From Spironucleus salmonicida (lineage: Eukaryota), in NCBI RefSeq assembly GCF_000497125.1, contig NC_090599.1, forward strand, positions 930,001 to 994,000: 64,000 nucleotides of DNA. Direction: 5' to 3'. The translations under genes and the position numbers were made by a program. Below are positions 1,243 to 26,000 of the stretch, piece after piece; position 1 is the stretch's first letter; every line of letters starts with the position of its first letter. The notes under the pieces are model-generated. The model ran no database searches. It saw only the letters and a list, made by a program, of their open reading frames with translations, and was not told where the DNA came from.

Positions 1243-3396
1243 ACTTGTAAGGTTAAAATAAAACTTTTGTATTTTAAAAGTATATATATATATATTATAT
1301 GTTTTAGAGTGGCAATATTTTTATTATATTCTGGTATATAATATTATGTTTTTCCACTTTATTTTCTATTCCTTACTTAATATTATATAGTATATAATAA
1401 CTTTTAGCTTTTGAAAACTACGAAACTATATATCTCCCACTTCTGTTGTTGTATACTTAAATCTTTTTAAGTATTATATCCAATATATAGTATAATAAAA
1501 TTGTGTAAAGTAGAAGTTTCCTACGTATGGGTAATGGCAATTATAAATTTTTAACGATGCCTCTGGGCTTAAGTCCAGATAATGGCATAATAGCTTGGCC
1601 GAAAGTTTAAATGCCAAAAAAGTTAAATTGTGAGTGGAGGCTCAGTTTCATTTTTAGCAAGACAGAACTGTCTGTTACAATAAGAATGAAACAATGAAAA
1701 TTAATTTAACAAAAATAAAATAGAAAACGACCTTTTATCATCAGGTTGGCCAAAACTATTAACGATTAAAATTTTTGAGTAGGAATTTTAAAAAAGTGAT
1801 TTTTCAAACTTTCAGTAGGCGACTAGCAATTGAGGGTCCTTGTGTTAACACATTTTGGTGGTGCTAGATGACTTCTCTGGATGACCTTGTGCGAAACATG
1901 ATCTAGGTTTGTCAGAGGGATGAGAACCGACATAAATATTATATATTCTATATATCGACAATATATGCATAAATTAGTTTTTTCTACGTATACAATTCTG
2001 CAAAAACTGAAATGTTGATATTTGTTGAGGTTACTAGTTTTTTAGTTTCTGTATTGTGAAAACAATACAAAATTTAATATAATATAAAAAATATACAAAT
2101 ATTTTTGTATAATATAAAATTAAAATTTAGATTTATGTATTAGTATTATATATATTACGAATATTAACGTTTTTCAATTTACTGTATATGTTAGTTTCTG
2201 GCAGAGATAGAAAAGGAAAAAATATAGTATATATATAATAGATATATATATATTCTATATTGTATTTTAAAAGTACTTATTTTTCAAACGATTCGTCCAA
2301 AAAGGTCAAAAAATCATTATTTTGACACCTGTTGTGGAGTGGTACTTTTTGAAAAAAGGAGTTATGTAATTATTATATAGGATTATGTTAAACTTATTTT
2401 TTTCAAATTTTCACACACTTTGTTATGGTGTAGTATTATGCAATTTTTCTATTGTTTAAAGTGGTGAAAAAATAATATATATATATATATTATAGGTATA
2501 TTTTTTTGGTTTATAATATTGGAAAGATTTGTATTTTACATTAGTTTTGTACATAATTACATCAAAATTATACATACAAATTTACTATAAAATTCAGTTT
2601 CTACAGTTTCTATAGATTATTCAATATACAGACATATTATATTTACATATATATTAATAAATGTATTTTAAAGTACTCAAATTTATCAACCAAACCCATC
2701 AACACTATCACAAAACTCACTATAAAATTTTATCAAAATTTTTTAACCCTTGTTTGAAAGCTTATTATTAAAAATATCAAATAAAACTATTTTTAATATA
2801 TATTATTATATGTTTTTAAATAAAATATTTACAATTAATTATTCTAGTTTCTTCTATAACTTGTGTGGCAATAATATATATATCTAAAATATACAATTAC
2901 TTTCCTTTTTTTAAGAGAGTATAATTTATTGAATATTACTATTATATTTGTATATTATATTAGTTATTATAAGTTTTCCTTTTCTTTTTTACATTAATAT
3001 AATTATAATTATATAAAATTAATAATTTAAAAATGGGTAATGATAATAAAAATTAAAGTGATCAAAAAAATAAAAGAAATGGAAATTTAAATTATTATAT
3101 AATGAATATAATTTTATTAAAAAAATAATGATCTATTCAGAGTTGAACCCAGTATTAGTAAAATTAAAAAAATCGCTTATAACATCTAAACAAAAATTAT
3201 TATTTATAGATTTTTGGAGTGGAAATATTTTTAAGAATTTAAATAAATGGATATTATTATTATATATATTTAGATATACCATGGAAAGAAGAAATATTAC
3301 GTATAATAAACAATAATATTAACAAATCAATTTATCGTAAAAATGGATAATTAATAATTTCATATATATAAAATAGTACTAAAAATAGTCTCTAGA

Positions 3397-4659
3397 ATAT
3401 ATTATATACAAAAACTAATTTCGTAGAAAAAGAAGTAATATATATTTACAATATTAAATGATAGTTTCAATTCTTTTTTTAAAATCATAATAATAACTTT
3501 ATATATGAATAATATAGTGTTTGGTGATGCTAAAAAACTATTTAGAAATCTACAAAACCGATCTATTTTTAGAATCAACGTTTTAGAATAAGTGTATATG
3601 AATATATAATAATATGTAGTTTGCCCAGAAAAAACGCTTCATTTTTATGATTATAGATAATTTACTATTATAATAGGTTTGGTAACTTCCGGATTTTTAG
3701 CCAACTGTAGATGTATAGGTTTTTCCTTTCCTAAACATAACCTTTTGGTATTTTTTTTCTAATAGTGATTCTGCATTGAACGTGAAAAAATTTACATCCC
3801 ATAGGATATAATACACTATCGTATTTTTTTAAATACCATTAAATGTTGCAACCACTGCAGACTAGTTAATAGGATATACGATAACGTTATACAAAAGCTG
3901 CTGCAAAAGCTCTTGCAGAAGTCTATAATGCAGAAGCTACTGAAAAATACCACGCAAAACGTTGGGACCATATCGAATGCTTACGGTATGACGTGGACAG
4001 ATTCTAAAGGATGGTTGAGTCATTGACTAATTAATTAAAAAGAACTTAAATTGTTCTCAGAAGTGGTGACACGCTTAGAATCTTACACCATCAATATAGC
4101 TTATCATATCTTGACGGTTAAATTGAACAGGAAAAAAAGTCATTAGAGATAACTAAATACGAATTAGAGGTGGCAGTCCACTAACATAGATATATTTAGG
4201 CATAAATCCTGGCATTACCTGCAGACCCTGCAAACTATACTTATGTATAAGGATAAGGATTATCCGAAGAAGTTTGGGCCGAACTCCTTGCGATAAAAAC
4301 ATAATACACAGATCAAGAAATATTAGACAGATATCAAACTTCTGACACATCAGAATCTATGTGATATAATATTATATTATTTTTTTTTTCAATTTAATTA
4401 TTTTAAAAGTGATTAATCTATATTAATGATCTGAATAAATTAACCAATCTTAAAATGGTTAAAGGTTTAAAGTTTTAAATGAATTAATTATTTCTAAATA
4501 TAAATATAACTATAACTATAAATAAATAAATAATAATTCAGGAGATGTAAAGTTAATAATATTTATTTAATCTTATACTATATTTTTTTCGATTTTAATT
4601 TATATTTATATTTATTAATATTACGGATCTAATTTGATGAAGATGTTTTAATAAATATA
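3397..4659 (+). repeat. Left terminal inverted repeat
   Basis: Near-perfect reverse complement of 19840-21101 (one homopolymer indel noticed); mirrored ORF-track entries 4153-4350 / 20149-20346. Confidence 0.95.
3843..4364 (+). CDS. Hypothetical 173-aa helical/coiled-coil protein encoded within the left TIR
   Basis: TAAATG start, open to TGA with TAR=Gln: MLQPLQTSQQDIRQRYTKAAAKALAEVYNAE...SESM; followed by T10-CAA. Confidence 0.7.
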
Positions 4660-4772
4660 TTTGTTTGATGAATATATGAATAATTCTATTACTGATAAGT
4701 GTACGTGTATAAATATGAATATGTTTTAATAAATAAATTAAAATTGAAAAAAACAAAGATAATTCTTGTTGA

Positions 4773-5735
4773 TCACTATCTCATAATAATACTTTAATCT
4801 AATGGTAACTATATATTAATAAGATCATATTAATTAGAATAAATATCTATAAATCCGTTATCTGGTCTAATAATAATAGTACCACTCTTTGCAGATCCTT
4901 TTTAAATAGTAATTGGGAACTTTTTAGCACAGTCTTTTGGCATAAGAATTAATCCACCTTACTGAGCACACTCATCATTTATAATAATTTTATTATCTAC
5001 GCTACCAGATTCTTTGATGAGAATATTACCAGTACAATCTTTACCAATAAATATATTTTATGAATCTTATATTTATATATTTTTAGAATTACTATCAATA
5101 TACACTTTTGATGAATTATTTATTTTTACATTCTCACAATCTGATATGAATATATTGCTACCAACTACATCACAACCTGTTATTTACTTAGTACCTTCAA
5201 ATAAACATAAATTTTCTGCAACATATTTAACATTTTACATATTTGGTAAACTAACTTAAACATACTAAGCAGTATCATTTACGAACCTTTTAGGATAACC
5301 GATAACAGATTATACATTATTTGGTAATGCTTGATCAGTTACTTATACAAATTATAAATTTTAGAAATCGAAAGACATGTCAATCAATCCTGGTCTGATA
5401 CGTCTAACAATATTATAATGTTACATAGTCTTTGAACTTGGGTATTAAAATTTAAAATCACATATATCTGAATCAACTTTAGTACATATAATAATATCAT
5501 CAGTAAAGTTTACTGATTTCAATAGTTTAACAGTGTCACTTTCTTTATCATATTCAACTACATATAATCTTTCTAAACTACTATAATCTTAATTAATATA
5601 AACTTAATCTTAAATTTTACCGTGTGCTGATAGTTGTACAACATAAGGACCTTCTTGTCCTTCTTCGTAACCTTTTATATTATCAATTTGAATAGGTGTT
5701 TAACCACCTTACATAATATTAATGAACCTTTACAT
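4773..5735 (-). CDS. Beta-helix-like repeat protein, paralog B (320 aa)
   Basis: TAAATG start, MQRFINIMQGG...; Asn/Ile/Cys/Gly-rich repeats (NIFISDCENVKINNSSKVYIDSNSKNI); TGA stop. Confidence 0.7.
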
Positions 5736-5780
5736 TTATTCATATAAAAAATAAAGTCAATAAATATATAATCATAATAA

Positions 5781-6800
5781 TCATAATAATATTACATCTT
5801 ATGTAGATTATATGTTTAACAAATCATTGTCACTTGTTCTAACATCTATCATACCATTATTATTTTTGATTCTCACTACTCCATTATTTCCTGAATCAGA
5901 TCTGATTGTTATCGAATTTGTTTTTGCAGATCCTTACTCTATAAATAATATTCCATTATTAAAACAATTGGATTCTATATTTATTTAACTATTAATGTTT
6001 CCAGAGTTGTTACCTATAAATACTTAACCAGAATATTTATCAATATGTCCATCTAGCTTTATATTTTAACAACCTTGTTCTATAATTATATTTTAACAAT
6101 CATTATTTATTAGTATATTTTATCCATTAATTATTTAATTTTATTATTTACCTATAAATATTATGTTGTTACCTTTACATTATATATTTTACATGTTGGT
6201 ACCTAGAACAATATTGTTACCAGTAATTTAACAATTGCTAATATGTGTTATGTTAACTTCACATAATAAATATTTTGAATAGTAACATAATTAAACATCT
6301 TAAGGTAATCTTAATGGTTGATAACTTATGTTACATTAATTTTATTTTACTAATATAAATTCATCTGGTAAATTTGGAGTACTAGCAGGAATAGTTATTG
6401 GAATAAAACAATTAATAATATTACCTAAATAATTAAATTATTAACATACAGTATTCACAAAATCAAACTAACAATGTAACTATTGTCTAGATCTGTTACA
6501 AATCAAGTAAAATTTGTTTTAATATTTAAAAGAGTAACACTCGTTACATATCTTAACATAAATAACATCATTTGTAAACTTATCAGAAACTAATTATATT
6601 ATCTCATTATTTATATTATCAAATGATATTATTTTAAGTTTCTCATTTTATAATTATATTGGATAGTCATCTACTTTATTCACAGATTATTATTCATTCT
6701 TTTTTTCAATTCTTATTTCTTAATAGAATCATTGATTATTTCCTAGTCTATATCTATAAATATTTATAACTATTTTGTAGTTACTACAATTCTACCATTA
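5781..6800 (-). CDS. Beta-helix-like repeat protein, paralog A; 5' end disrupted, start uncertain
   Basis: Open frame ~6700 to TGA at 5781 (GNNIVLGTNMQNIQCKGNNIIFIG...); C-terminus resembles paralog B; frame change near the T7 run at ~6700-6706. Confidence 0.6.
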
Positions 6801-6868
6801 TATGTTAAAGTTGGATATGATCATATTAGTTGTGCATTTAATTTAGCGAAAAATTTTCTAATAAACAT

Positions 6869-8056
6869 ATGCCACAGCAGTAAATGTTCATAAACATCTA
6901 GTCAACCAATGATATTAAAAGATTGAATATAACTTAATCAGATAAGATAATTTATCCAGAACAATTAAACGTATTAGAATTAACAAACATTAGTGTATAA
7001 ACTAATTAAAAATGTAACGACTTAGTATTAAAAGGAAGTAATGATGATATTATAATAGCTAGATTAGTTGATACTGAACTGTGTTCGTTTTTGTATAGAC
7101 ATGACAAATATTCTATAATTAAAAGATACAATGATAATATAAGTCCAAATTTTGATTTTAAAAATACAATTAAACACTAAGATCGTAGTGGATTAATATA
7201 ATATAAATAAGTAACTTAAAATTAATATAATTTAGATGGAATTGTTAGTATTAAAGATAGCATAGATCTATCAACATATTTATAAAATATAAATTTGTAA
7301 CTAAACTTGTTATAATCTTATTCTGATATCACCAAATTATAAGATATAACTGTTATTAACTCTTCTGATATTGTGTTAGGAAACTAGAGTTAAGGAATTA
7401 GTATACATGATAGTACAAATATTAGAGTAGATGATAATTGTTGTAGCGAGTCTGGAAATATAATTATTAATTCTTCTAATGATATTCACATAGGAAACAA
7501 TTGTGCAAACTATGGATTAATTTATATAAAAGATAATTGTTAAAATATTTATATTTAAGAATAGTGTAGTAATTCGGGTTAAATAATAATAAACAGTAAT
7601 TGTGGATCACTTGGTGGTTAAATTATTATACAAGATCAGTGTGCTAATTAAGGTTAAATATTGATAGGGAACTCTTGTGCAACTAATGGAGGTAAAATAT
7701 TGATAGGTAAACAACTATAATTAGTAAAAATATAAAATGGGACGACAACTAATCCAAATTCTATATTAAACATATGTTACGATTAATATAATTTTGACCA
7801 ACAAATAATATTATAGAAATCTTAGTAAAATCTTTAAATTATAAATGATCTACAAATATAGAGATACAAATTCCTATATTTAATAAACACTAAAGATTAT
7901 TATAATCATATCAAGAAGATACACTAAAATAATATTATAAATTTATAATAAGTATAGAATTATATAGCACCAGTAATAGATCTACAAAATCCAGACTAAA
8001 TACCAAATATGTTCGACACTGATTAATATGAGAATGTAAAAATTTTATTAAACTGA
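6869..8056 (+). CDS. Beta-helix-like repeat protein, paralog C (395 aa)
   Basis: MPQQQMFINI...DDIIIARLVDTELCSF...FDFKN, then repeats such as NSSNDIHIGNNCANYGLIYIKDNCQNIYIQEQCSNSGQIII; TGA at 8054-8056. Confidence 0.72.
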
Positions 8057-8061
8057 GTATA

Positions 8062-11000
8062 ATGAACGCTTCTATAAATGATTGTTTCAAAGCATGCATT
8101 GGTTCTTAATATATCTTCTGGATTTATGATAAAAGGCTATAAAGTTAGTACGCAACACACTATTTACCTACCTAATCTGACAATGATGCATTTTGGTAAG
8201 AGTATATAGAGAAGTTCATATCTTCACCAAATAACACTAATGTACAATACAAAAACAAAGCTATTGATCCTAAATATAATTCTGGGATACCATTTGACTC
8301 TGATATATACATAAATATAGATGAAAAGGAATATTTAGTCAGCTATTATTAAATCTTATTGTAAGGTAGATAAAAGTAGCTAGCTCAACAAAAATTAGAT
8401 AATATATAAAATATGAATGAAAATGATATTATGTAAACGTTTAAATAATTAGTAAGTGCTCACAAATTTATACCGAAATAAGATATTATGTAACTAATTT
8501 AATAAGCAACAGTAGAGTTCCTATCTTTCCTAAACAGTAGATTCGAAAAGTCTACTATAGGTGGTAATCCATAAGGTAATCCTTTAGGTATATAACCTAT
8601 AATTATGTTACGAGACAAATTAGACTTATCAAAATCTAAAAGTGATGAACATGTTTACAGATACGGTTTCCATATATATTATTTTGGTGTCAAGTTTACC
8701 TTTTAATGGAAATATTTTATAAAAGAGTACTTCACTTTCTCACCACAACTAATTTAAAATCTATAAATGTTGTTACCACACACTACTCTAGATTAATTCT
8801 TAGATACTTAACCTTTGGTAGGAGCAATTTCTCTTCCTTTATCTAATAGTAAAGCTAAATCTTATTCTAGATTTTATAATAGTGATAACAATAAATATGT
8901 AGATGTTACTACTGATATCTTATTATTATTAGCATTAAATCCTTTCTAAGGATAACCTGCTAAGATATAGTAACAGTACTCATATTTAATATTAGATGAA
9001 TTTTAATCTTTTGTAGAATATTTGTAGATTAACCAAACCCAAAGTTACGAACATGCAATAACTGTAGCTATTAATTTTATAATGTAACATTCAAAAGCTG
9101 ATCCATCTTTACTAGAATTATATAAATAGTATGGACATCCATCTTACCAACAAAGAATACAAATTATATAATATTTAATAAATATATATAGCGGTAAACA
9201 TAGATTTATGTTACTATAGTGTGCTTACTATTTAATAATGTGTGGTAACGATTAAACTACTTAACTAAAATATAATTCTGTACAACAAATACTTGATACT
9301 TATGTACCTTCTATTGATACTCCATAAGGTAATCCATAAGGTACTCCATAAGGTAATCCTATTATTGATAACAACGTTGATGATGAATATGTTGATGAAT
9401 CTGTTGATGATAGTACTACATAAGGTAATCCATTAGGTACTCCATAAGGTACTTCGTTAGATGGTGAAGTATCTCAAGTATCTTATTTATTAAATTCTGA
9501 TACACTTGTTAATACGTCATCAGAAGATACTGTTTGGTTAGAAAGTAAGAGAAATAGATTTCAAAAAAAATATCTATTATAGTATAGCAATAATTTTAGT
9601 ACGTTCATAAAAATAACCAATCAGTAGAGCAATCAATATTATTATTGTTCAAATTATATAATTCTATAAATAATACTAACTTATAATATAATTAATAATT
9701 AATATATTTATAAAATTTTGAAAGTTTTCTTGCTAAGTATCATTATGGAATATTTCTTCAAACTTATTATTCACAGTTGAGATCATCTACTTTAGATGTA
9801 TCAGTTTAAGAAACTTACACAGATTATATTGTAACATAATTATAAAACAAAGTAATAAGAAGATGTGATGGATTATTAGTATTTTAAGAATCTGCTATAA
9901 ATTATTCTGATTATAATAAATATCACTTTGATACTGGTGCTATACAAGTTCCGGATATTACAAACAAAATTATGGTTAATTTAAAAAATAATATATGTTA
10001 AAAGGTAGCTTAATATAAATTAAATTCTTATATAATATTTCTTGAAGCTTCTAGTAACTTTTCTAATAAACGGTGGCTTGCTAAATAAGAAGATTCTCCG
10101 AATATTGTTCAATACCGAGAAATTTCATAGTTATATTGTTAGATACGTTCCATAGATATGTATTAAACTAAATTCAGAACTACTGGTAAAGCTACAACAG
10201 ATAAATTGTAACCAAACTTATAGTTAAATCAATTAGATATAGATTAAGATGATAATATAATAGGAGTATTTAATGGTATAATATAATATGATAATAATAT
10301 TAATAACTTTTAATTACTAAATGCTGATCAATGTAGAACTAAACTAGTTACAAAATCTAATCTGTTTGAAATATAGTAATAGTTTATAGATAAGAATTAA
10401 TTCTTGATAACTCCAGAATAATTATCAAAAGATATTATAGAAGGATATGATGATAACTAGAGTTATTATTAAATTTATAAAGAAGTAGAATCAATTTACT
10501 CAGATATATTTAATGATGGAGACGACATCGAAGTATTTGAATTTATTATATTATAAGGTTTTACAAGAATGATTCATAAGACTATATCAAACTCTCACGT
10601 ATTGTTTTAATATGGTACTGGTTCAGATGGTAAAACATTCTCAACTTAAAACATAATGACAGGATTAGGTTCTGATGCAACATCTATACAAAAACGAAAG
10701 ATTTCAGCGTAAGGTTATTCATCTAAAGTTAAATCATCAGTATTACAAACTTCGAACACTTGTGCTAGTAGTCATGACAGTGGGGGTTATCCAGAATTAA
10801 TTGGTAAATATATTGCAGTAGTATCTGAATTAAATATTAATGTTGACCTAAGTGTAGATGTAATCAAATCATTATGTTGTGACACTTAAGTTAGTTGTAG
10901 AAAAGCAAATGCTTCTGATGTTGTTAGTTTTACAAATAAAGCTCTTATTATTATATAATCAAATTCTTATCCTAGATTTAATTAATAAATAGATGATGGT

Positions 11001-11673
11001 CTAGCAAGAAGATTCTTATTTTATAGCCATAAAGTTAAATTTATAAGTGAGTAATCTTATAATGACAAAACCGAATCAGAAAGAAGACAAAACAAAATAG
11101 CTAGTGTAGATATACGTACAAAAATGTCATCAGATCTTAGATATATAGATGTGTTTGGGTTTTATATGTTATAAACTTATATGAAGTGTATAAGAAGAAG
11201 AGATGATTATACTAAAGTTACCCCAATGTTATAATATGAAACTAAACAATTTTAAGATAATATTTAAAAATATATCACAGAGTGTTCTAATTTATTAGAA
11301 TTTAAACACATAAACTTCATCTACTTTAAATAATATATAAAGAATGTTTAAAATATAATAAAATCTTAAGAAGAATAGAAGAACCTTAATTAATAATAAG
11401 TTGTAATCATATTTATTAATTAAAAGTAATCTTTAGTATATATATATATGTTATTTTGACTTAACTAAGAAGATCTTGTGTAGGTTAACTGAGAATGACT
11501 TCTAAGCTAAAATGAACAACACAAATTTTATAGTAATAATTATAGACCACGTTTATGTAAGTTAAAACTTACAACAGATCAATGATGTGTTCTACACTTC
11601 GTTATCTACTAAGAACATAGACGTACATACGACAATATTGAAAACTATATAAAGCTTTGAAAATAACATCTGA
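8062..11673 (+). CDS. AEP primase - superfamily 3 helicase fusion (poxvirus D5 / ASFV C962R-like), frameshifted
   Basis: AEP-like motifs SGIPFDSD and YRYGFHIYY; Walker A YGTGSDGKT at ~10611-10637; IAVVSE, IIIQSN, DDGLARRF..HKVKF. Frame change at A8 (9563-9570); second frame stops at 11459, probable further shift in (TA)n ~11437-11449 extends to TGA 11673. Confidence 0.88.
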
Positions 11674-11747
11674 TAATTATATTCTTATAATTTTTTTCAA
11701 GAATTTTATCAAAAAAAATATTATATAAATAAATATTAGTGATCATC

Positions 11748-12728
11748 TCACACTAATAAAGTGTCCCAGTTCTTGTATAGATTACTAACAGGTTATTAAA
11801 CAATTAATAAGAAGTTATAATTTGACAACTGTTGATTAATCTAAATAGGTTAAGGTAAGTTCGTCACTCTATTTAATTGCTTATATTGTTCTATAAATTA
11901 AGGTACCTAAAAAGTATCTGTCTACAACTTTGGTAAACTATAATACAAATCTTATATCTCTTCAAAGTCTACTCCTTAAAATAAGAATATCATATTCATG
12001 TGCTATTTAAATAGTTTAGTTGCTCGGTTGATACTATGTAAAGATATACCTATAAACCATAATCCTAAATGTCTCTTTGTTGTTAATAGTTTTGCAAAGA
12101 GTTCGTGAGTTAAATTAGTTAACTCTGTCTTTTAATAATAATCAAATCTTAAAACTATCTTCTACCTTCTGATCCAATATCCATCAAAGTGTTGTCCAAC
12201 TGATTTATATAATTGACTAACCTGTATATGTTTCTAGTTATCATATTCAGCGAATAACAATTCTGGATACTTAGTCTTTACTGTTTAAATTTAATTTATA
12301 CATTATATGATTTTATCTTAGTCCTATATTTAACCATTTCTTAATGTAGATTGTTTAGTTAAGACTTTACTAACATCGTCACTCATATTTTAAAAGAATT
12401 TAAATAATTATTATAATTTGTTATCATCTGGTTAAATCTTAGTCTTCTTATCTTTAGTTTGTTTTAAAGTATCGTCGCTCTGTACTGAAGGGGATATAAA
12501 GATATTATGAGTAACTTTTTCATTATTTAATTAAGGATTATTTAAATCATATTTAGTAAGAGTAGCGTAATCTATATATTGTTGAGCAACCGTATTCATT
12601 TAGTATGATTTACCTGAACCTGGAGATCCCCAGAACCCATAGAATCCATAAGATATTAATTTAATATTATTGTTTTAACTAGAATCTATAATAAATTAAC
12701 ATTCGTCTGATTACACATTATATGCCAT
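11748..12728 (-). CDS. A32/FtsK-HerA-type genome packaging ATPase (326 aa)
   Basis: TAAATG start; Walker A GFWGSPGSGKS (~12607-12639), NIFISPS, Walker-B-like IVLRFDY, arginine-finger region LLTTKRHLGLWFIGISLH; intact frame to TGA. Confidence 0.82.
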
Positions 12729-12755
12729 TTATTAATTAGAAAAATATAATTTTGA

Positions 12756-15236
12756 TCATTTTATTATGTCTGGTCCTAAACATGTACCCGTTTATAATGC
12801 GTAATGTTATATATAACGACATCTATTAATTAAAGATAATTTATCATATACTTCTTATTTGTAGAATTAATTTTCAGAAAATAATTTATTGTAACTTGGT
12901 TAGAAAGTTGCACACACTTTAATTTAATCAGATATTATAATTTTATATTATGGTAACTCATCAGTAACTTAAAATATAATAAGGTTGTTGTTAGTATACA
13001 ATCTAGTTTGTACTACACATTTTATTTCTATCCTGGTATAATAATAGTATTAGCTTAATAATAACCTATAATGTTAAATTACTTTATTAGTTTGTTTATA
13101 CTATTCTTAACATATATTAAAGGTTTGTCATATATTGCAGCAAACAATTGTTTATGATTTTCAATAAATTAAGTATCATCATCTTTCATATATACATAAT
13201 TATCCCAAACTAAGTAAGATGTTAATGTATCATTGTTTAAGAATTCTTTTTCTAGTGATGCTTATTATTATATTAATTAACATATTTGCACTCTTAACTA
13301 ATTAGTAATTACTAATTAATTTATTTGTGTGAATACGTTAGCCATAGTATTGTTAGTATTCTTTTATACAATAATAATTGGAGTTAATTACTTTTACATA
13401 TTTGCTAATTATGTTTCTGAGGATTATTGTTTGGTAAGACAATCTTTTCTATATAAATATTCTTCATTAATATTTGATTAAATATATAATTATTTAATAA
13501 TATTTAGTAATTCTTCGTCACTAAAATATGATAAAGAGAAATTAAAGGTTACAAATTAATCCGTTCTAAGTATCTATAATAATTATTACTTAGGTATTGT
13601 TTTTATTTATAATTCAAATAAGAATTTGTAAATTTGGCTAAACATTTCTAATTTAAATCTGTCATACAGCTTTTTGGATTAATATTTAATTTGTTTTGTA
13701 TCTTCTAACAAGTTTGCATTATAACATTGTTTTCTTATTTTAAATAATAGTTATTATATATTTTAATCATCGTTATATATTTAAATCCATTTCTACTCAT
13801 GTTAAGTAATTTTTGAGAAGTTTGGAGCAGATGGTACGAATATATACGTTTTAACATATCTTTACTATTCTGGTAAATCTTAATGTGATTTAAATCTAAT
13901 AGATCTAGCAACAATTTATTTAAACATAGACATGTCTACTATATTATCAGTTATCATAAAATGGTTTACACATCTAAGACTTAACCCTGTCTGACCTATA
14001 GATGATAATATTAATAATTATATTTTGTATCCGTATTTATTTTCATAACTATTAAATATTTATTAAACTTTAGATAACTATATTCCAGATAACTCAGCCG
14101 TATATTTTAAATAAGTTGCTTGCTAATAATGCCTCTTATCTTCTTTGTTAGTATGTTATTATAACTGTTATCCACAAATCGAACATAACGTAGTCTGAGT
14201 AGGTCTTTCATTAAATAAAATGTAACCATTATGTAATAATATTTGTTCATATTGATATAACCCGAAATGAGTTTTAGTGTGATCAAAATATACTACTATT
14301 TTTTTTTTGATCTTTCTATTTTAATATATATTATAATTATTTTATGAAATTATAACTAATAGGTGAACACTTCTTAAGATTTTAAATAGATACTTTATCA
14401 CCTACCAAAATATGATTAGATAATATCTCAGTTCCATCATAATAATATTTAGGTAACAACAATTTAGCTCTATCCAATCCATCAGAGTTAGATGTTACTT
14501 ATAAATATTTATTATATTATTATTACCCGAGTTAACATCTAAACAAATTAAACTATTTTATTAAATTAGGTCCATTTTCTATTTATATGTTATTAGGAAT
14601 ATAGCTAGAATTAAGCTTAGTCCAACTTATAACATGTTCAGCTAATTTTTATATGTTTTAAGTATCATCACCTATACTCTAATTAAATATAGATAATATA
14701 GAATTAATTTCATCTACGTTAGAATTAATTAATGTACCAATAAGACATATAACTCTACAACTATTTAGATGTATTTTAAAGAAATCTCTAAACAGTTTAC
14801 CATAAGTGTTTAACTCTTTTTAATTATATAAATGTTAAAATTCATCTATGATTATATAACTACCTACGAATTAATCTTACAATTCTTAATAAGTATATCT
14901 CAACAGTCCTTATAAAGTAACGAATGTAATTTATAAAGTAGATTAACATTTATGTAAATCATTTTTGAATGCTTATACTGTAGTCTCATTTCCAATTACG
15001 ATTGCTCTATTAGTTATTTATTATATCATAGATATGGCAGTAGTAGTTATACCAGTTCCCATTACGAAGTCTAATATATACCATTTTAATTATTAATTAG
15101 CTAACATAAATATTCTTTAAGCATATAATTAATATTTCTTATATTAGAACTACGTACCAGTATTTTATATATTTAGTTTATCAACGTTAGTGTGCAAAGA
15201 TTAAAATCATAAATCATTTTTATCAATTTAAGTCAT
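12756..15236 (-). CDS. D6/D11-type SF2 helicase (VETF small subunit / ASFV D1133L-like), disrupted
   Basis: LDFVMGTGITTTA, YIIIDEFQHLYNQKELNTYG, CLIGT, Zn-like insert TTLCSICG..H, QIVARSIRFKSHQDLPEQQRYV. In-frame TGA at 15207-15209, frameshift at T10 (14299-14308), probable shift near 13030; 3' end tentative. Confidence 0.85.
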
Positions 15237-15294
15237 TATGTTAATCAATACAAAAAACACAACAATAGAAGATTATCTTTTTTTTCAAATATAA

Positions 15295-16113
15295 ATGTCT
15301 TCTTTTGGTATAGATCAGTACAATGCGTATGCTGGAAGTTTAGGAGAGTCTAGTGTACAATATTATAAAATCAAAAACATATTATTTAATTCAGCTTTCT
15401 ATTTAGGACCTGGACAATCTATTCCTAATTAAACATTCGATGACGATCATTACTTTACTAATATTTAAATTAATAGTATATATTTCTTAGGGAATTATTT
15501 TGATAAAGATAACATAAATGGGTTAAGCTTATACCATGCAGCATATTATTTCTCACCTACTGACAAATTCAACATGTACTTATTCTACGGAGATTTGTAG
15601 TTTACTAGGATGTTCATTCTTGGACATCTATTATAAGATGCTACTGCATAATTGAGTAGTTAAATCATGTTTACTTTCCATTTAATTAAACGAAACTGTA
15701 TATATGTATCTAAAGATATATATTAAATAACAATTGATAAATAAACATACCATGGTCAAATGAATGTTATGTGTTAAAGACTTTACCAGACCTAAGTTAT
15801 TATTGATAAATATAAATTATTTATAGAATTAGTATTAAAATTAAATGAAGAAACCAACAACAAACTAAAAGATTATAAAATATAAGCTAATGAATATTAA
15901 TAATATACTAAGCCAATTAAGTTATCATTATTATAAGATTATTATTAAACTATTAACCGATCGATATAATTATAAACTAATATGAATAAATTTAATACTT
16001 AAAATGTAAATGTTATATCATGTGTAAATATAGTAGATGTGTAGTTAGATAATTCAGTAGTTAACAACATGGATATAAAACAAAGTTGTAACATTAGTCA
16101 AGAACAATAATGA
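15295..16113 (+). CDS. Hypothetical 272-aa protein; C-terminal C-x-N-I...N..I.Q.C pattern reminiscent of NCLDV virion membrane/entry proteins
   Basis: TAAATG start, open with TAR=Gln; ends NVISCVNIVDVQLDNSVVNNMDIKQSCNISQEQQ. Confidence 0.65.
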
Positions 16114-16291
16114 ATTTGAAAAAGATAATTCAAAAAAAATCATATAAACTGATCATAAATTAAATTTATTTAATTACATACGTTCATTTAAATTTATTTA
16201 AGTTTATTTAAGTTAATCAGTTTAATAAAAACATATGTTTTATATATTATATTAATTTACGTATTATTAATTTGATGAATACTATAAAAGT

Positions 16292-16906
16292 TCATTTAGA
16301 AAAACATTACATACATGATTTAGAAATTTCAAATATGTCATTAAATATGCTTAGAAGCTTTTTTTTGTTTTTCTCGAATATAAAGGTTATATATTATTTT
16401 AATAAAATATAAAAATCATCATTAACTTCAATGCGTTTAGACGTATCATCACTAGATAAATATTATATTATACTATTTAATACTACTTATTGTCTATACT
16501 ATCCTAACTTTTTACCTTTAAAACATGACTCAGCTGTTGCCATTAATCCAACAATAACTTAATAAGCTGACTCAACAATGTTCTAATTAACGTAAGCTAC
16601 TTTAACATTTTGCATTATTTATAATGAATATTTTTAATATTTCTTGTTTTGGTTTTATGTTATTATTGATTATTTTAAATTATCTTTACTTATATTATTT
16701 AACAACAGGTCTGTTCTCTACACTAACGTTTCTTAACTGTTTACAGAACTTCCTAAATTATTTACTACAGTGTTCACTATATTACTTTCTATTTTTTCGT
16801 CTATATGTTCATTTTACAGTTTGTAAACTTCTTTTGAAAAATCTTATGAAAAGTCTTCAGACTCTTCTATTATATCTTTAAGAGTTTGGTTAATATCAGG
16901 TGGCAT
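16292..16906 (-). CDS. Hypothetical 204-aa protein, acidic N-terminus, C-terminal CxxC
   Basis: MPPDINQTLKDIIEESEDF...IVGLMATAESCFKGKKLGQ...SKSCMQCFSK-TGA; intact frame. Confidence 0.65.
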
Positions 16907-16946
16907 TTGTTACTGTGAAAAATATTTTTTTATTGGCAGACATCAA

Positions 16947-18080
16947 ATGGGTATTAATGGATTACTGAACTATCTTTAAAGAACAAATAACATATAATAC
17001 GAATAATTTAATTAGTTAGTATTCGTAAAACACAATATAGTAGATTTTAATAACCTTTTATACAAATAATAAAACAATACTTAACGAGAATTTAAACCAA
17101 TAAATAGAATATAAAATGTACTAAACTGTTGTAAATAATTTGCTAATAATCCTGATAAATAATTCTACATAGTGTTAGACCCAATTGGAAAAACTAGAAA
17201 ATAACCTATCATAGATTTTAAATAATATTAAGATATTATAACAACTTATAGCGATCGTAAATGTGAACTAATGTTTAATAATAGCGATATATGTGCTAAA
17301 TATAATAACGGATATGTTGATAGTTACTACCCTTTTAAATATAAGAAAGCAGATTTTAATCATTGGTAGACTGCTAAATTTCCTATATATAATGATATAA
17401 TATGTATGTAATATTTTAAAGATCTACCTAACGTTGAAGTAATATATGCTCCAGTAGAAGCAGATATAACGATAGGCTAATTAGTTTAACGACTATAAAC
17501 TGAAGCTGAAGTAACAAACAATGATATAAATATATTTTCATATGATTCTGATATGTTAATTTATTCTAATGGGGTTAATATGTAAACTAAATAATATATT
17601 ATTAACATGGACACTATTAATAAACAATTACATTTTAAATATATTTATATAATTAAATATATTTCTATAACATATGCAGATTATTTTAATTTAGAAGAAT
17701 AACATTTGTAAACATTATTTGATAAAGTATATCGTTAAAACATACAACAAGTTAATCTTAAGTTTATGTTAGACAACATAAAATATTCTAAATATGATTA
17801 AATAGATCAAATCTAATTATAACTATCTTAATTTAATATTAATACACTAGGTTGTGCTATTATTTTTAATTTATTATTTCTACAACCTGTTTATGATTAG
17901 CATTTGACAACAAGTTAATTGATAGAATAATATTATAATATTAATTATTAATATAAATTAAAACTTGATAGTAACATATTTTAAAATATAACATTTTTAA
18001 TGAACAACTTAGAAATAATTTAGAACCTATCTCCTACAGAATTATAGACTATACGTAATAACAAGATAACAGTTATATGA
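16947..18080 (+). CDS. FEN1/XPG-family PIN-domain 5' nuclease (377 aa; poxvirus G5-like role possible)
   Basis: MGINGLLNYL, IVDFNNLLY, YIVLD, APVEAD, FSYDSDMLIY, ADY motifs in canonical order; intact frame. Confidence 0.85.
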
Positions 18081-18209
18081 TATTTTAATTTATATTTAGT
18101 GTTACTCTCTATTCTTTTTTTCAATTTTAATTTATTTGTATATTTATATTTATTATTTATTAAACTTTAAACTTACAACTATACATGTACCTTTATCAGT
18201 AATAGAATT

Positions 18210-18596
18210 ATTTATATATTTATATATTTATATATTTATATATTTATATATTTATATATTTATATATTTATATATTTATATATTTATATATTTATATATT
18301 TATATATTTATATATTTATATATTTATATATTTATATATTTATATATTTATATATTTATATATTTATATATTTATATATTTATATATTTATATATTTATA
18401 TATTTATATATTTATATATTTATATATTTATATATTTATATATTTATATATTTATATATTTATATATTTATATATTTATATATTTATATATTTATATATT
18501 TATATATTTATATATTTATATATTTATATATTTATATATTTATATATTTATATATTTATATATTTATATATTTATATATTTATATATTTATATTTA
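18210..18596. repeat. 8-bp tandem repeat (TATTTATA)n
   Basis: Direct reading; gives the spurious IYLYIYIF ORF. Confidence 0.95.
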
Positions 18597-18749
18597 TTTA
18601 TTAAATTAACTTCATAAACTCAAACTTACACACATATTTATATTTATTAAACAAACCTCTTAAACAACTTTATGGATAACTTCATGGATAACATCATGTA
18701 TCAGAATTGGAACTTCAACTTAAACTTAGATAACTTACAAATATTATTT

Positions 18750-18919
18750 ATTATTTATATTTATATTTATATTTATATTTATATTTATATTTATATTTAT
18801 ATTTATATTTATATTTATATTTATATTTATATTTATATTTATTTTTTTTTATTTATATTTATATTTATATTTATATTTATATTTATATTTATATTTATAT
18901 TTATATTTATATTTATATT

Positions 18920-18966
<47 letters not shown>

Positions 18967-19849
18967 TTATATTTATATTTATATTTATATTTATATTTAT
19001 ATTTATATTTATATTTATATTTATATTTATATTTATATTTATATTTATATTTATATTTATATTTATATTTATATTTATATTTATATTTATATTTATATTT
19101 ATATTTATATTTATATTTATATTTATATTTATATTTATATTTTATATTTATATTTATATTTATATTTATATTTATATTTATATTTATATTTATATTTATA
19201 TTTATATTTATATTTATATTTATATTTATATTTATATTTATATTTATATTTATATTTATATTTATATTTATATTTATATTTATATTTATATTTATATTTA
19301 TATTTATATTTATATTTATATTTTATATTTATATTTATATTTATATTTATATTTATATTTATATTTATATTTATATTTATATTTATATTTATATTTATAT
19401 TTATATTTATATTTATATTTATATTTATATTTATATTTATATTTATATTTATATTTATATTTATATTTATATTTATATTTATATTTATATTTATATTTAT
19501 ATTTATATTTATATTTATATTTATATTTATATTTATATTTATATTTATATTTATATTTATATTTATATTTATATTTATATTTATATTTATATTTATATTT
19601 ATATTTATATTTATATTTATATTTATATTTATATTTATATTTATATTTATATTTATATTTATATTTATATTTATATTTATATTTATATTTATATTTATAT
19701 TTATATTTATATTTATATTTATATTTATATTTATATTTATATTTATATTTATATTTATATTTATATTTATATTTATATTTATATTTATATTTATATTTAT
19801 ATTTATATTTATATTTATATTTATATTTATATTTATATTTATATTTATT
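18750..19849. repeat. 6-bp tandem repeat (ATATTT)n with a ~43-nt poly-T at 18922-18964
   Basis: Direct reading. Confidence 0.95.
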
Positions 19850-21101
19850 AAAACATCTTCATCAAATTAGATCCGTAATATTAATAAATATAAATATAAA
19901 TTAAAATCGAAAAAAATATAGTATAAGATTAAATAAATATTATTAACTTTACATCTCCTGAATTATTATTTATTTATTTATAGTTATAGTTATATTTATA
20001 TTTAGAAATAATTAATTCATTTAAAACTTTAAACCTTTAACCATTTTAAGATTGGTTAATTTATTCAGATCATTAATATAGATTAATCACTTTTAAAATA
20101 ATTAAATTGAAAAAAAAAATAATATAATATTATATCACATAGATTCTGATGTGTCAGAAGTTTGATATCTGTCTAATATTTCTTGATCTGTGTATTATGT
20201 TTTTATCGCAAGGAGTTCGGCCCAAACTTCTTCGGATAATCCTTATCCTTATACATAAGTATAGTTTGCAGGGTCTGCAGGTAATGCCAGGATTTATGCC
20301 TAAATATATCTATGTTAGTGGACTGCCACCTCTAATTCGTATTTAGTTATCTCTAATGACTTTTTTTCCTGTTCAATTTAACCGTCAAGATATGATAAGC
20401 TATATTGATGGTGTAAGATTCTAAGCGTGTCACCACTTCTGAGAACAATTTAAGTTCTTTTTAATTAATTAGTCAATGACTCAACCATCCTTTAGAATCT
20501 GTCCACGTCATACCGTAAGCATTCGATATGGTCCCAACGTTTTGCGTGGTATTTTTCAGTAGCTTCTGCATTATAGACTTCTGCAAGAGCTTTTGCAGCA
20601 GCTTTTGTATAACGTTATCGTATATCCTATTAACTAGTCTGCAGTGGTTGCAACATTTAATGGTATTTAAAAAAATACGATAGTGTATTATATCCTATGG
20701 GATGTAAATTTTTTCACGTTCAATGCAGAATCACTATTAGAAAAAAATACCAAAAGGTTATGTTTAGGAAAGGAAAAACCTATACATCTACAGTTGGCTA
20801 AAAATCCGGAAGTTACCAAACCTATTATAATAGTAAATTATCTATAATCATAAAAATGAAGCGTTTTTTCTGGGCAAACTACATATTATTATATATTCAT
20901 ATACACTTATTCTAAAACGTTGATTCTAAAAATAGATCGGTTTTGTAGATTTCTAAATAGTTTTTTAGCATCACCAAACACTATATTATTCATATATAAA
21001 GTTATTATTATGATTTTAAAAAAAGAATTGAAACTATCATTTAATATTGTAAATATATATTACTTCTTTTTCTACGAAATTAGTTTTTGTATATAATATA
21101 T
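19840..21101 (-). repeat. Right terminal inverted repeat
   Basis: Reverse complement of 3397-4659. Confidence 0.95.
20135..20656 (-). CDS. Second copy of the TIR-encoded 173-aa protein
   Basis: Mirror of 3843-4364. Confidence 0.7.
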
Positions 21102-23045
21102 ATTTTGGGTGTTTTTATAACTTATTTAAATCATATAATATCTATATATTAAAATGCTGTATAAAAACAGATTCCTAATATTTATTAATATTATTTATAA
21201 TATTGTGATAAATTTACATTATTATTAAGCATATAATAGTATAAGTCTATTTTTATGACAAGAGACAAGAAACCAGCTACTGGTTTAAATTATTTATTAC
21301 TATAAATAAATAATATTTAATTGCCTTGATTTTACTTTTTATACACCACTCTAAATTGTATAGAATTTTTAGAAAGATAATATTGATATAAAATATATAA
21401 TATTAAATCAAAGAAATCATATATACAGTTTTTAAATATAACATATACATATATTAACATATATAAAATCATTATAACCAATAAAATAATTTTCATAAAA
21501 TATATATTATATATATGTTAATAAATATATCTATAGATTTTTATATTTTACAAAATATCGTAAGGGCAGTGCCTTATATATTTCAAAACTATTATAATTA
21601 TTATACTTATAAGTACGAAGTATATTCTGGGCTAGATCAATATATTGTATTAAATATCTTAGGTCATTTATTTAAGAAATATTGCCTAATACGATATAAT
21701 ATAAATCTTTAGTGGTGTAGGTTAAATGAAGATTCAATGGTATTATATTCATGCAGCGATCAAATGTAAGTATTAGAATACTTTACGCATATTCTCATCA
21801 TAGGGTTTATTTCTATTGACTATATTAACTTCGAAATTATTAAATCTAGATAGCCATACTTTTAAGTGTTCAGTAGATTCAAAGACCTGAGCATCTACAG
21901 AATATGAATCTAGAGTCTAGTAATGGTGTTTCTATTTATATATCTCAAAATAAACACAAAATTTACCGAGTGTAAAGTGTTACTTACATACGGGATATTT
22001 CAATAGTTCATAAAGAAACTATAGCTAATACTAATTGCAGATTCTTAGCCAATACCATCCGCATGAAATTACTTCCAATTATTGTCGATGCCTGCCAGAG
22101 ATCTGTATTTCTAGATCCATTAAGAGGTACATTCTGGATTATTTACTTTATTAAGATCGAAACTGCATTTAGATAATAATTTATTATTATCACTATTTTT
22201 GCATAGACTTTATTTATTATAAAATTTGCTCCTAAAGGCCATATAGTATCAACTTGCTGGTTAGTTTAATAAGGTAAACGTAAAAATTAACTTATAGCGC
22301 GCTAGGAGGCCTATTTTAGATGAAATAATTGCAGTAAAATGTTTACTAAATATTATTAAGCACGCTATCTTGCTTCATCACCTAAAGAGACGATTTACAT
22401 TAGATATCGCTGAATTAAACATCAGCAATGCTAATAAAATAATAGCATATACTTCTAAAGTAAGTAAGATACTATATATAGTTTATCTATTTTCTCAATA
22501 TAAGACATATCAATATTTTTACACAACGTTACCTATTGAACTATATAATCAATTTTTGCAATATAATTATTACAGAATAATAATTACTTATAACTCAATT
22601 TTTAAAACAAAATATATCTTGTATAAACCAATTTGCCAGAACACCAATAATAAAATTTATTGTATTTAAAACACATTATATGTTAACATTACATATTTAC
22701 CATTATTACAATTAAAAAACTAATTTAGTTTGTGTTTTATTTATATAATAATGCAATATGCAATATTTTATTTTAAATAAATTCTTAGCAAGATTCTTTC
22801 TCTCGAGGATTACACATTTTTAAGTATTTTAAGATATTTAATTAGATATTCTTTCATAAAAAATTACAATTAAAATTATCCGCGACAATTACTTTCTAAT
22901 TAAACCTATTCTCCACCACCTAGCCATTCTTAGAGTAAAACCACAATTTTCCACATTTACAACATCTGACCTTTCCAAAATAAAACCTAAAATTCATATC
23001 ATTCATAACTTAAAACCTCTAATTTCCCAGATTCTCAATTTAAAA

Positions 23046-26000
23046 ATGACCTGCGACCCCACATCCCTTAAACCCCTCAACAACGCGGGAACCTGCGTCG
23101 CCTGCTAGGAAGTTATACCCAACTGCCGTACCTGCACCCAGGCAACCCCAACAACGATCGCCTGCATAACCTGCAAAGCGCCCTTCACGGGTGCGACGTG
23201 CGAGCGAAACTGCGGCCCGGAAATGGTGCAGCTGAACGAAAGCAACTGCCAGCCGTTCTCGGTAGCCTTCCCGCACCCGAAAGACTACAAACTCGCCTGC
23301 TCCGGCAGAAAGTACGGCGAGCCGAGCGTTCCGGACGCAAACGGCGACATTTCCTGCATCTGCCGCGCGGACAAATCCGCTGCACGGCACTTCACAGGCC
23401 CGAACTGCGACCGGCGCGTGCTGGGCCTCAGATGCAAGGGCGGACTCGTCCCCGTCTGCGCCAAATGCAGCAGCACAGGCTGCGCGGACTGCATTCCGGG
23501 AACGCAAAGCGCAAATCCAGCATCCGGATGCTGCAACAACAGCTGCAAGACCTGCGCGGCCACGCAGGGCGACTTTTCGGCTGCAACGCCATTCCCGCCC
23601 TCTCTCTGCACCGCCTGCGACGCGGATTCGGAGCGGCCGGTGCTCAAAAACAGCGCCTGCATCGCCTGCGCGGACGCGATCGACGGCTGCCTGCTGTGCG
23701 CGCAGCCCGGGAACGGCCCCGCGCGCTGCACGCGCTGCCGCGACCGCCTCCGGGGCGCGTCCTGCGACGCCGAGTGCGGCCCGGGCTACGCGCAGTTCAA
23801 CGTCGATTTCTGCGCGCCGGCGACGTGCTAATAGCCATCAAAATGCAGCGGCCGCGGCAGCTGCGTTGAGGCGTCAGGAGGGCAGATCTGCACCTGCGAG
23901 GCGGGCTTCGCGGGCGCGAATTGCGAGCTGAACGGGCCGGCTTGCGAGGTCAAAAACTGCGAGTCCTGCGCTTCGGAAGGCGTTTGCGGCGTTTGCAGGC
24001 CGAATTTCAAGCTGGTTGGGCCCGGCTGTGCGGAAATGGAGTGTGAGGATTTGATTAAAAATTGCGAGATTTGCGATGGCGAGTTTCCGGCGTTCAGCTG
24101 CACTATTTGCGGACAAGAATTCACGGGGAAGGACTGCAGGACGCGCTGCGAGAACGGCTACGTGCAGTTCGGGGAGGACGCGTGTGGGAACATCTCGTGC
24201 GCGACGAATTTACCCTGCTCCGGGAATGGAACCTGCGCGGTCGACGAGGTTGGGAATAACGTCTGCGGCTGCAAGCATGGCTTCGCGGGGCGGAGCTGCG
24301 AGTTCCGCTGCGACTAGAGCTGCGCGAGCTGCGTCGAAAGCACCCCTGCCAACTGCACCAGCTGCCCTGACCAGAAATATTTGGTAGACATGAAGTGTGT
24401 TGCCTGCAGCCAGGTGCCAAACTGCATCGGCTGCGCGCAGCAACTCCCGGACCTGCACATCAAGTGCGTGGCGTGCGCGGACGGCTTCACCGGCGCATCG
24501 TGCGACCGGGAGTGCCCCGCGGGGCAGCTGCGTTACAAGACCGAGTTCTGCCAAAGCGCCTCCTGCGAGACTGCGGTTCCGTGCAACGGGAACGGCACCT
24601 GCCAGCTAGCGGGAAGCGACTTCCTCTGCCAGTGCAGTAGCACCACGGCTGGCCCCGACTGCGGGACGCTGCGCGCTGGCAAAAGGTGCGGCAGCGGCCC
24701 CGAGATCAAAAACTGCACGAAATGCACCAGCGGGCTGACGTGCGCCGAGTGCTTCATGGGCGCGAGCCTGTCGAGCGACGCGCTGCAGTGCTGCGCGCGC
24801 GGCTGCCGCGGCTGCGAGAGCAATGACCCGGATGTCTGCTTCGGCTGCGACAAGGGCAGCGCGAAGCCGTTTTACGACGGCGGCGCCTGCAAAACGTGCA
24901 CGGAGGTTTACGCGCAGTGCTAGCTCTGCAGCCAGCTGGGCTTTCTGAACAAAGTGACCTGCGAAGCGTGCGCCGCCCCGTTCACTGGCGCGCAGTGCGA
25001 CCTCAAATGCGCCCCCGGGGAGCGCCAGTTCAACGGGCGCTTCTGCCAGCCGGCGACGTGCAAGGAGCACGCGCCCTGCACAGGGGAGGGCGCTTGCGTT
25101 CCGAAGGGCAGCAACATGGCCTGTGAGTGCGTACGCGGCGTGGGGGGCACGAATTGCGAGCTGCGGCCGCGGTGCGACGTAGCGAACTGCCAGCTGTGCA
25201 CGCTCCACGACCACGGAGCGTGCCAGGATTGCGATTTGGACTACACGCCGAAAGGGGGGCTCTGCGCCCCCAAAACGTGCGCTGAGGCGCTGCCGAACTG
25301 CGCCTCGGGGTGCTCCGGCGCGCCTGCGAGCTTCTTCTGCGCGCGCTGCAAGCCTCCGTTCACGGGCCAGAGCTGCGAAAAATCCTGCGAGCCCGGCTTC
25401 GTGCAGTACCTGTAAGAGCACTGCCAGCCTGAAACGTGCGAAACCGGCTGCTCCGGGAGTGGAACCTGCGCGCAGGACGCTTCTGGGAATAAGTCCTGCA
25501 GCTGCGCCAAAAATTATAGTGGAATTAACTGCGAGAACAACTGCGCAGAGCCATGCAAAACCTGCACCGCAAGCAAGCAGGTCTGCACGTCCTGCTACGG
25601 CAGCTTTTCGCTGGAAAGCAGCACCTGTGTCAGCTGCGCGCAAAAGTTCCCGAACTGCGCCGAGTGTGCCGCCGCCTCCCCGCTCGCGTGCGCAAAGTGT
25701 GCCGTGGGGTTCACGGGCGCCTCCTGCACGGACACCTGCGCGCTAGGGACCGTCCAGTACGGCGTCTCCGGCTGCCAGCCGATTTCCTGCCTTTCGGCGC
25801 TTCCGTGCCAGGGCCAGTCCGCTTGCTTAGCTGCTGGGGGCGACCTAAAATGCACCTGCAAGAAGGACGCCAGGGGCCCGAACTGCGAGATCCATTCCGG
25901 GAAGGGCAAGACCTGCAACGGATACAAAATCTTAAAATGCGTCGCCTGCACTACCGGGCGCCCTCCCGCATGCGCGTTCTGCGCCGTCGGGTACCGGCTC

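Follow-up and report, generated by a model that had tools for sequence, protein, structure and literature searches.

A candidate endogenous DNA virus-like element, written in genetic code 6, in the chromosome of Spironucleus salmonicida

Bamfordvirae is the kingdom name for the world of the Polinton-like viruses and the giant viruses. Mavericks/Polintons carry a protein-primed family B DNA polymerase (PolB), an rve integrase, an A32 ATPase, a Ulp1-like protease and capsid genes, and are flanked by a 6-bp target-site duplication; the cytoplasmic linear plasmids of yeast are AT-rich, with inverted ends and an NPH-I-like helicase, and those of the killer (pGKL1/2) type encode a terminal-protein PolB, an RNA polymerase and a capping enzyme. 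In diplomonads, an RNA virus of Giardia has been described, and we know of no other virus in this group. A survey of protist genomes, in the accessible part of its text, describes insertions of 15-30 kb that have inverted ends and encode a capsid protein, an integrase, an ATPase and, for replication, PolB or a primase-helicase; it places in a Metamonada group the endogenous viral elements of Streblomastix, which read TAA and TAG as glutamine (code 6), and reports that A32 ATPases and primase-helicases occur in Polinton-like viruses too (PMC10120064). Spironucleus and Giardia have no occurrence in the main text of that survey, the supplements of which may list more hosts (PMC10120064), and the words 'virus' and 'viral' do not occur in the available portions of two diplomonad genome papers (PMC11787283, PMC9509377). 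Literature searches turned up no report of Polintons, Mavericks or endogenous DNA viruses in diplomonads, 'Polinton' and 'Maverick' being absent from the 15 papers listed out of 61 that matched, and a 2026 catalogue, as far as its available text goes, holds only one code-6 giant-virus genome bin (PMC13524828). Here we describe an element at positions 3397-21101 of a 64-kb stretch of Spironucleus salmonicida DNA (contig NC_090599.1, positions 930,001 to 994,000; the window), which we regard, with moderate confidence, as the integrated genome or near-whole remnant of a small double-stranded DNA virus-like element from the Polinton-like-virus and giant-virus world.

Across the window, GC-rich genes (60-68% GC) alternate with AT-rich spacers. 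An initial annotation had pointed to a hidden, repeat-bounded element of about 17.7 kb at 3397-21101, and this overall observation is confirmed. The two arms of the terminal inverted repeat, found by self-comparison and gapped alignment at 3397-4659 (plus strand) and 19840-21101 (minus strand), align over 1263 columns with no mismatch and one gap, in agreement with the ~1.26 kb first reported. At its inner end the right arm is interrupted by an AT hexamer microsatellite (TATATT, ~270 copies, ~1.6 kb, 18223-19848) that contains a 51-nt T run, beyond which a degenerate continuation of the repeat is found at 18153-18414; within it 18180-18223 pairs with 4668-4711 at 89%. The region was also said to look empty in a track of open reading frames (ORFs) and to hold about eleven packed ORFs once TAA and TAG are read as glutamine, and both statements hold. 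In 3397-18100 the longest frame left open by standard stops has 97 codons, and of the six ATG-initiated ORFs of at least 100 aa that overlap 1-25000 under translation table 11, the sole one inside the element lies in the microsatellite and was rejected as an artefact.

With TGA as the sole stop, 36, 17 and 5 frames stay open for at least 200, 300 and 500 codons, against means of 16.8, 3.1 and 0.07 in 200 Markov-1 shuffles. Because AT-rich DNA yields many spurious TGA-free frames, a codon log-odds model was trained on eight candidate genes; at each position between about 4776 and 18077 a single frame came out on top, and four genes withheld from training (5784-6728, 15295-16110, 16295-16906 and 3843-4361) also scored positive. 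No coding signal of this type was detected in the flanks (1-3800 and 21100-23000), and none of the 57 AT-rich sub-windows of the remaining window reached a score of 8 (maximum 6.5). Twelve coding segments result, which amount to ten genes plus the duplicated ORF of the repeat. Short A/T tracts of the AAAAATTTT type stand 10-30 nt upstream of the starts of most of these genes. Separately, the 40-bp spacer 16907-16946, between two divergent genes of the element described below (a 204-aa orphan and a FEN-like gene), contains a near-palindromic, AAAAATTTT-like A/T tract.

In base composition and codon choice the element differs sharply from its surroundings: its genes have 21-27% GC (36% for the repeat ORF), against 47-62% in three host genes, and it writes 368 of its 467 glutamine codons (79%) as TAA or TAG, against 17 of 146 in those host genes. 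In-frame TAA and TAG are found in host genes as well, namely an adaptin gene (Pfam Adaptin_N, 7e-41) and long genes for cysteine-rich membrane proteins, which supports a code-6 element inserted in a code-6, diplomonad-like host. So high a share of reassigned stops amounts to heavy dependence on the variant nuclear code, and implies long co-evolution with the host.

One gene of the element encodes a primase-helicase in two overlapping plus-strand segments. The N-terminal part, with the predicted AEP primase region (8062-9570), runs to a frame change at a run of eight A (9563-9570), and the C-terminal part, a D5-type SF3 helicase (9501-11459), continues in a different frame. The latter frame (9501-11456, P0001) matches PHROG family phrog_1156, 'DNA primase', at 6.9e-10, and Pfam DUF5906 at 1.4e-3; its annotated form, P0005, matches TIGR01613 (C-terminal domain of P4-family primases) at 4.4e-12, under the curated cut-off. 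A HMMER search of 1.84 billion representative sequences returned 29 proteins with E <= 0.001, one of them P0005 itself. The top three relatives, P0006, P0007 and P0008 (1113-1182 aa, E 1e-19 to 5e-18), and a second group (P0011, P0013, P0022, P0024, P0029 and P0031) are metagenome proteins encoded on contigs of at most 48 kb; that the nearest relatives are full-length proteins of 1,100-1,200 aa on contigs of this length fits the size range of small viral genomes. In a Pfam scan of 16 relatives, two had AEP_C962R (P0008 at 1e-7, and P0033 at 6.5e-23 alongside PriCT_2, D5_N and DUF5906), seven had DUF5906, three had D5_N, and seven had no family.

The window's own ORF of the AEP region has no Pfam AEP match and was tested through these relatives. 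When a profile of P0006-P0008 was run against the 208 code-6 ORFs of 1-23000, two colinear matches were obtained: ORF 9501-11456 at 5e-33 (profile positions 515-1001), and residues 187-281 of ORF 8032-9777 at 5.6e-7 (profile positions 118-216). Residues 113-223 of P0008 were also placed on 8587-8949 by tblastn (E=0.004). The colinearity suggests that one primase-helicase of ~1,130 aa is encoded in two frames. These sequence comparisons support the predicted AEP-plus-SF3 protein of the C962R/D5 kind that the initial annotation had proposed; its further claim of an affinity to C962R of African swine fever virus (ASFV) in particular was not shown over the wider D5 family, as no ASFV chain matched among solved chains and the best solved relatives of the profile are monkeypox E5 and vaccinia D5 (~2e-7). 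Scans of viral and metagenome contig collections with the same profile found no related locus.

An SF2 helicase is likewise split: its N-terminal part (14286-15107, minus strand) and its C-terminal part, with motifs IV-VI and a long tail (12596-14308, minus strand), lie in different frames, with the change falling at a homopolymer of 10 bases (14299-14308), so that the helicase is without one continuous reading frame. The C-terminal part matches vaccinia NPH-I at 4.3e-6 over 84 residues that cover motifs V-VI and the next conserved block, and Pfam Helicase_C at 4.5e-4. NPH-I is the only meaningful solved match despite the many SF2 helicases in the PDB, and supports the D6/D11-type assignment made earlier; a closer affinity to ASFV D1133L was not shown against the wider NPH-I family, since no ASFV chain matched here either. 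The N-terminal part gave weak matches to SNF2, DEAD and ResIII (0.004-0.04) and no solved match in the PDB search, and its motif I reads GTGITT, without the Walker A lysine of an intact GxGKT. The minus-strand gene at 11748-12728 encodes P0004 (326 aa), which the ESM Atlas identifies as a packaging ATPase of the A32/FtsK-HerA type: its three nearest clusters (scores 0.97-0.98) carry Pox_A32 in 18-57% of their members, including 57% of a cluster of virus and Parabasalia proteins and 43% of a Fornicata-rich cluster of 326 members, and its structure rows give TM 0.52-0.61. The A32 ATPase of the initial annotation is thus supported from the ESM Atlas.

The 377-aa product of 16947-18080 (plus strand) has XPG_I as its sole Pfam family (E=0.089, weak; residues 162-231 against profile positions 1-75 of 89) and begins with MGINGL, which we take to resemble the start of an XPG-N domain. 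It had been annotated as a FEN1-like nuclease; the XPG_I match and the start agree with this, but no XPG_N match was found in Pfam and no FEN1 or XPG chain in the PDB search, and it is treated here as a putative FEN1/XPG-like nuclease. Weak rows for Atg8 in the PDB search with this protein (E ~0.03) were taken as chance. Three paralogs with 28-31% identity among themselves are encoded at 4773-5735 (320 aa, minus strand), 5781-6728 (315 codons open, minus strand) and 6869-8056 (395 aa, plus strand). The AF2 model of the first, made from a three-row alignment, has pLDDT 70-81 at residues 190-320 and poorly modelled N-terminal 115 residues; VIA-align matches its C-terminal half at Z 9-12 to parallel beta-helix phage tail fibres and tailspikes, pectate lyases and adhesins, values that for repeat folds speak to architecture only, and Foldseek found no match at E <= 0.001 in BFVD or the PDB. 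The other two are assigned to the beta-helix family by paralogy; the second lacks an in-frame ATG over the first 177 codons, and the ATG present shortly upstream of it is off the frame by one base.

Three orphan genes complete the set. The 173-aa ORF of the repeat (3843-4364, plus strand; second copy 20135-20656, minus strand; 36% GC) matched no family at a meaningful E-value in Pfam, PHROG or NCBIfam. Most of it (3858-4354) is covered by contigs of runs X5 and X6, which cover short pieces of other element genes too; that these runs are RNA is a guess, and the coverage is not proof of expression. P0051 (272 aa, 15295-16113, plus strand) is coding by codon usage and has no Pfam, PHROG or NCBIfam family of note; its AF2 model without alignment has pLDDT 29, and its best ESM Atlas score, 0.83, brings no family. 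A role for P0051 as a Ulp1-like protease was considered and found no support from Pfam or the ESM Atlas. The third orphan, of 204 aa (16292-16906, minus strand), is recognized by its codon-usage signal.

That the element is integrated, as the initial annotation had stated, is borne out by a paralogous copy of its flanks in which the block is missing and which shows both sides to be host sequence. The reverse complement of 56582-57822 matches 1-1242 at 91.6%, that of 55500-56581 matches 21567-22648 at 98.9%, and the two stretches directly abut at 56581/56582; this base-exact empty site means that 1243-21566 (20,324 bp) was either added here or lost there. The 17.7-kb unit proposed at first is therefore real as a repeat-bounded unit, but the inserted block is larger, with 2,154 bp beyond the repeat on the left (1243-3396, partly high-copy repeat, no coding signal) and 465 bp on the right (21102-21566, non-coding). 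None of the six ORFs of these extra segments has a Pfam family (0 of the 4 that touch the left segment), and no other copy of the left segment is present in the window. Neither 3397/21101 nor 1243/21566 is flanked by a direct repeat or target-site duplication. On the right, the block adjoins one arm of a 14.4-kb inverted duplication of cysteine-rich membrane protein genes (21567-35978 versus 42171-56581, 99.3% identical, 6.2-kb spacer), the high identity of which stops exactly at the insertion point, the outer flanks being 91.6% identical; this drop would fit homogenisation of the arms that stops at the insertion.

Short-read contigs, compared over 800-18100, add a view of copy number in which depth serves as a hint only: in run X1 the depth is 148 for the core of the element, no higher than the 156 and 280 of chromosomal contigs nearby, and 8,800-11,000 for 1349-2231 of the left extra segment. 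At 20-70 times the core depth, 1349-2231 and 3499-3778 suggest dispersed high-copy repeats. By these depths the core looks single-copy, and both the outer tip of the repeat and the extra segment on the left are members of repeat families. A diverged copy of 2718-3413 (9-12 differences, seen in two DNA runs) joins the repeat tip with a 75-nt skip from 3413 to 3489, so there seems to be a second, partial copy of the 2718-3489 junction elsewhere in the genome. Over 3752-18100 the sequence is reproduced, with no differences and no gaps, by a contig of 14,488 nt in run X1, which comes from the same sample and is hence not independent; both frame changes thus stand in that data set too. Six A/T runs of at least 8 bases occur in 4776-18077, and two of the three that lie in coding sequence are the frame changes. 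P0004 and P0051 are annotated on a 1,696,856-bp contig, and neither shares its protein cluster with another member.

Compact genes that depend on code 6, identical ends and a packaging-type ATPase point to the virus-like reading given at the outset, under which the element would be single-copy, adapted to code 6, placed between the Polinton-like viruses and the giant viruses, and probably defective. The free form would be a linear molecule with inverted ends of ~1.3 kb. Replication would be initiated by its own AEP primase, the forks would be unwound by its D5-type SF3 helicase, and the FEN1-like nuclease may trim flaps or primers. Synthesis would fall to host polymerases, the element having no room for a polymerase gene. 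Packaging of the DNA into a capsid would be driven by the A32-type ATPase; the capsid proteins would be among the unrecognized ORFs, with the three beta-helix paralogs as candidate spike or fibre proteins. The chromosomal copy sits between genes, in an AT-rich stretch with other repeats next to it, and no target-site duplication flanks it; we infer insertion by non-homologous joining. With two poly-A frame changes, no Walker A lysine in the SF2 helicase and a beta-helix gene without an in-frame start, this copy has probably lost its autonomy. The identity of the ends, together with frames that are open apart from these defects, suggests either a recent insertion or conversion that preserves the match between the ends.

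Several results weigh against this reading. No capsid, penton, maturation protease, integrase or polymerase was recognized with Pfam, PHROGs, NCBIfam, the PDB, the ESM Atlas or fold search, and in the lack of a recognized capsid gene the ATPase alone speaks for a virion. The A32 assignment of P0004 comes from a single source, a language-model and predicted-structure look-up; Pfam gave weak, sub-threshold P-loop families in the N-terminal region, none of them Pox_A32, and a PDB sequence search gave nothing. The nuclease assignment is plausible but weak. Since the block extends past the repeats and is high-copy on its left side, the mobile unit may differ from what the repeats suggest; 280 nt of the outer repeat (3499-3778) lie in a contig of depth 3,110 (~20 times the core), which then diverges. 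No listed short-read contig bridges 1242/1243; those ending at this point run on into the arm with the empty site. Word-based protein searches with the helicase, the ATPase and an orphan gave at most proteins of the window itself and found no second copy or close relative of the element, and scans of the viral contig collection with P0005 and P0004 found no related locus.

The negative results on hallmark genes differ in their reach. A protein-primed PolB had no match in Pfam, PHROGs or NCBIfam, and the longest unassigned ORF has 395 aa; no multi-subunit RNA polymerase, capping enzyme or terminal-protein PolB was recognized, and no ORF is large enough for one. An rve-type integrase had no match in any library, in a set of proteins so diverged that the ATPase, too, escapes Pfam, and a double jelly-roll major capsid protein or penton had no family match, with P0051 and the N-terminus of the first beta-helix paralog poorly modelled. 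An alternative reading is a capsid-less selfish replicon, that is, a Maverick/Polinton-derived transposon or an integrated linear plasmid with a replication module and an A32-like ATPase but no virion, which we judge unlikely. It would agree with the failure to recognize any capsid, penton or protease gene, and with an AT-rich sequence that has inverted ends and an NPH-I-like helicase. A32-type ATPases, however, are as far as is known tied to the packaging of DNA into capsids, and no terminal-protein polymerase, integrase or target-site duplication was recognized here. The Mavericks of Trichomonas offer a precedent on both sides: according to the accessible text of the protist survey they were long without known capsid genes, but a major capsid protein was found later, which makes the failure of sequence searches to detect one here weak evidence (PMC10120064).

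Quite improbable is a second alternative, that the element is a fragment of a far larger, asfarvirus-like giant-virus insertion and that its inverted ends arose from a local inverted duplication. The C962R/D5 primase-helicase, the NPH-I helicase, the A32 ATPase and the FEN1-like nuclease all belong to giant-virus core families, and large inverted duplications abound in the host region; but the flanks carry no coding signal of the element type, the empty site shows that only 20.3 kb were added, the identical repeats frame a compact unit, and no polymerase, RNA polymerase or capsid gene was found anywhere in the 64-kb window. That an assembler wrongly joined a free linear replicon or a contaminant to the chromosome at the repeats is likewise quite improbable: the left extra segment is high-copy, listed short-read contigs leave 1242/1243 unbridged and the composition is sharply unlike that of host genes, but the element lies on a contig of 1.70 Mb, both neighbours of the block are host DNA whose paralogous copy has an empty site exact to the base, the element uses the rare code of the host, and its depth (a hint only) is not raised.

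The interpretation first offered for this locus is thus sustained in part, as regards a foreign, AT-rich, code-6 element, and not in its ASFV affinity or its separation from Polintons. The contention that its content is that of a giant virus rather than a Polinton was not shown: no giant-virus core gene was recognized beyond the primase-helicase, the A32 ATPase, the SF2 helicase and the FEN1-like gene, and the first two are found in Polinton-like viruses as well, according to the available text of the survey (PMC10120064). Nor does the supposed lack of any described equivalent hold in full, since the same text describes code-6 viral elements in Streblomastix (PMC10120064); the diplomonad host is new.

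If the element is virus-derived, no trace of a DNA virus had been noted in a diplomonad genome before it. Its size and ends are Polinton-like and its helicases typical of giant viruses, so that it bears on the relation between the two groups. As a tentative extension, it may represent a previously unsampled lineage of miniature diplomonad viruses between the Polinton-like viruses and the Nucleocytoviricota, with genomes of ~15 kb, a replication and helicase set of the giant-virus type that comprises the C962R/D5 primase-helicase, the NPH-I-type helicase, the FEN1-like nuclease and the A32 ATPase, no polymerase of their own and a capsid diverged beyond recognition, to which the metagenome primase-helicases of 1,100-1,200 aa on contigs of 15-48 kb would be standard-code kin. 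Standard-code pipelines would miss elements written in code 6; if such a lineage exists, its code-6 genomes have been invisible to standard virus mining.

No tRNA gene and no Rfam family was found in 1-23000. Three copies of an AT-rich sequence (1-450, 41328-41656 and 57373-57822; 82-87% identical) lie upstream of cysteine-rich protein genes and form a local family unrelated to the element.

The element compares with known systems as follows. Like the Nucleocytoviricota, it is AT-rich with inverted ends, its primase-helicase has relatives that combine AEP_C962R, D5_N and SF3, and its best solved matches are D5/E5 and NPH-I; unlike them, it has no PolB, RNA polymerase, VLTF3, capping enzyme or recognizable capsid and no direct ASFV match, and even the smallest known giant viruses exceed it about tenfold in size. 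With the plasmids of the pGKL1/2 type it has in common AT-rich linear DNA, inverted ends of comparable size and an NPH-I/D11-like helicase; it differs in being chromosomal and in that the terminal-protein PolB, RNA polymerase and capping enzyme of those plasmids were not recognized. Mavericks/Polintons resemble it in size, inverted ends and an A32-type ATPase, and the Atlas clusters nearest to the ATPase of the element are rich in Parabasalia and Fornicata, whereas the element has no room for PolB (unassigned ORFs of at most 395 aa), no recognized integrase and no target-site duplication. Traits of the Polinton-like-virus size class are present in the element (15-40 kb, inverted ends, A32 ATPase, primase-helicase). 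As far as the Polinton-like viruses are described in the text available, they share with it a length of 15-30 kb, inverted repeats, a contrast in GC, the primase-helicase, the A32 ATPase, integration in protists and code 6; the element differs from them in having no recognizable capsid proteins, protease, rve integrase or tyrosine recombinase, no target-site duplication, an NPH-I-type SF2 helicase, a FEN1-like gene and a diplomonad-like host. Four features are new in this comparison: no integration or capsid gene can be recognized, the host group is a new one, a unit this small carries both an NPH-I-type helicase and a FEN1-like gene, and reassigned stops are used to an extreme degree.

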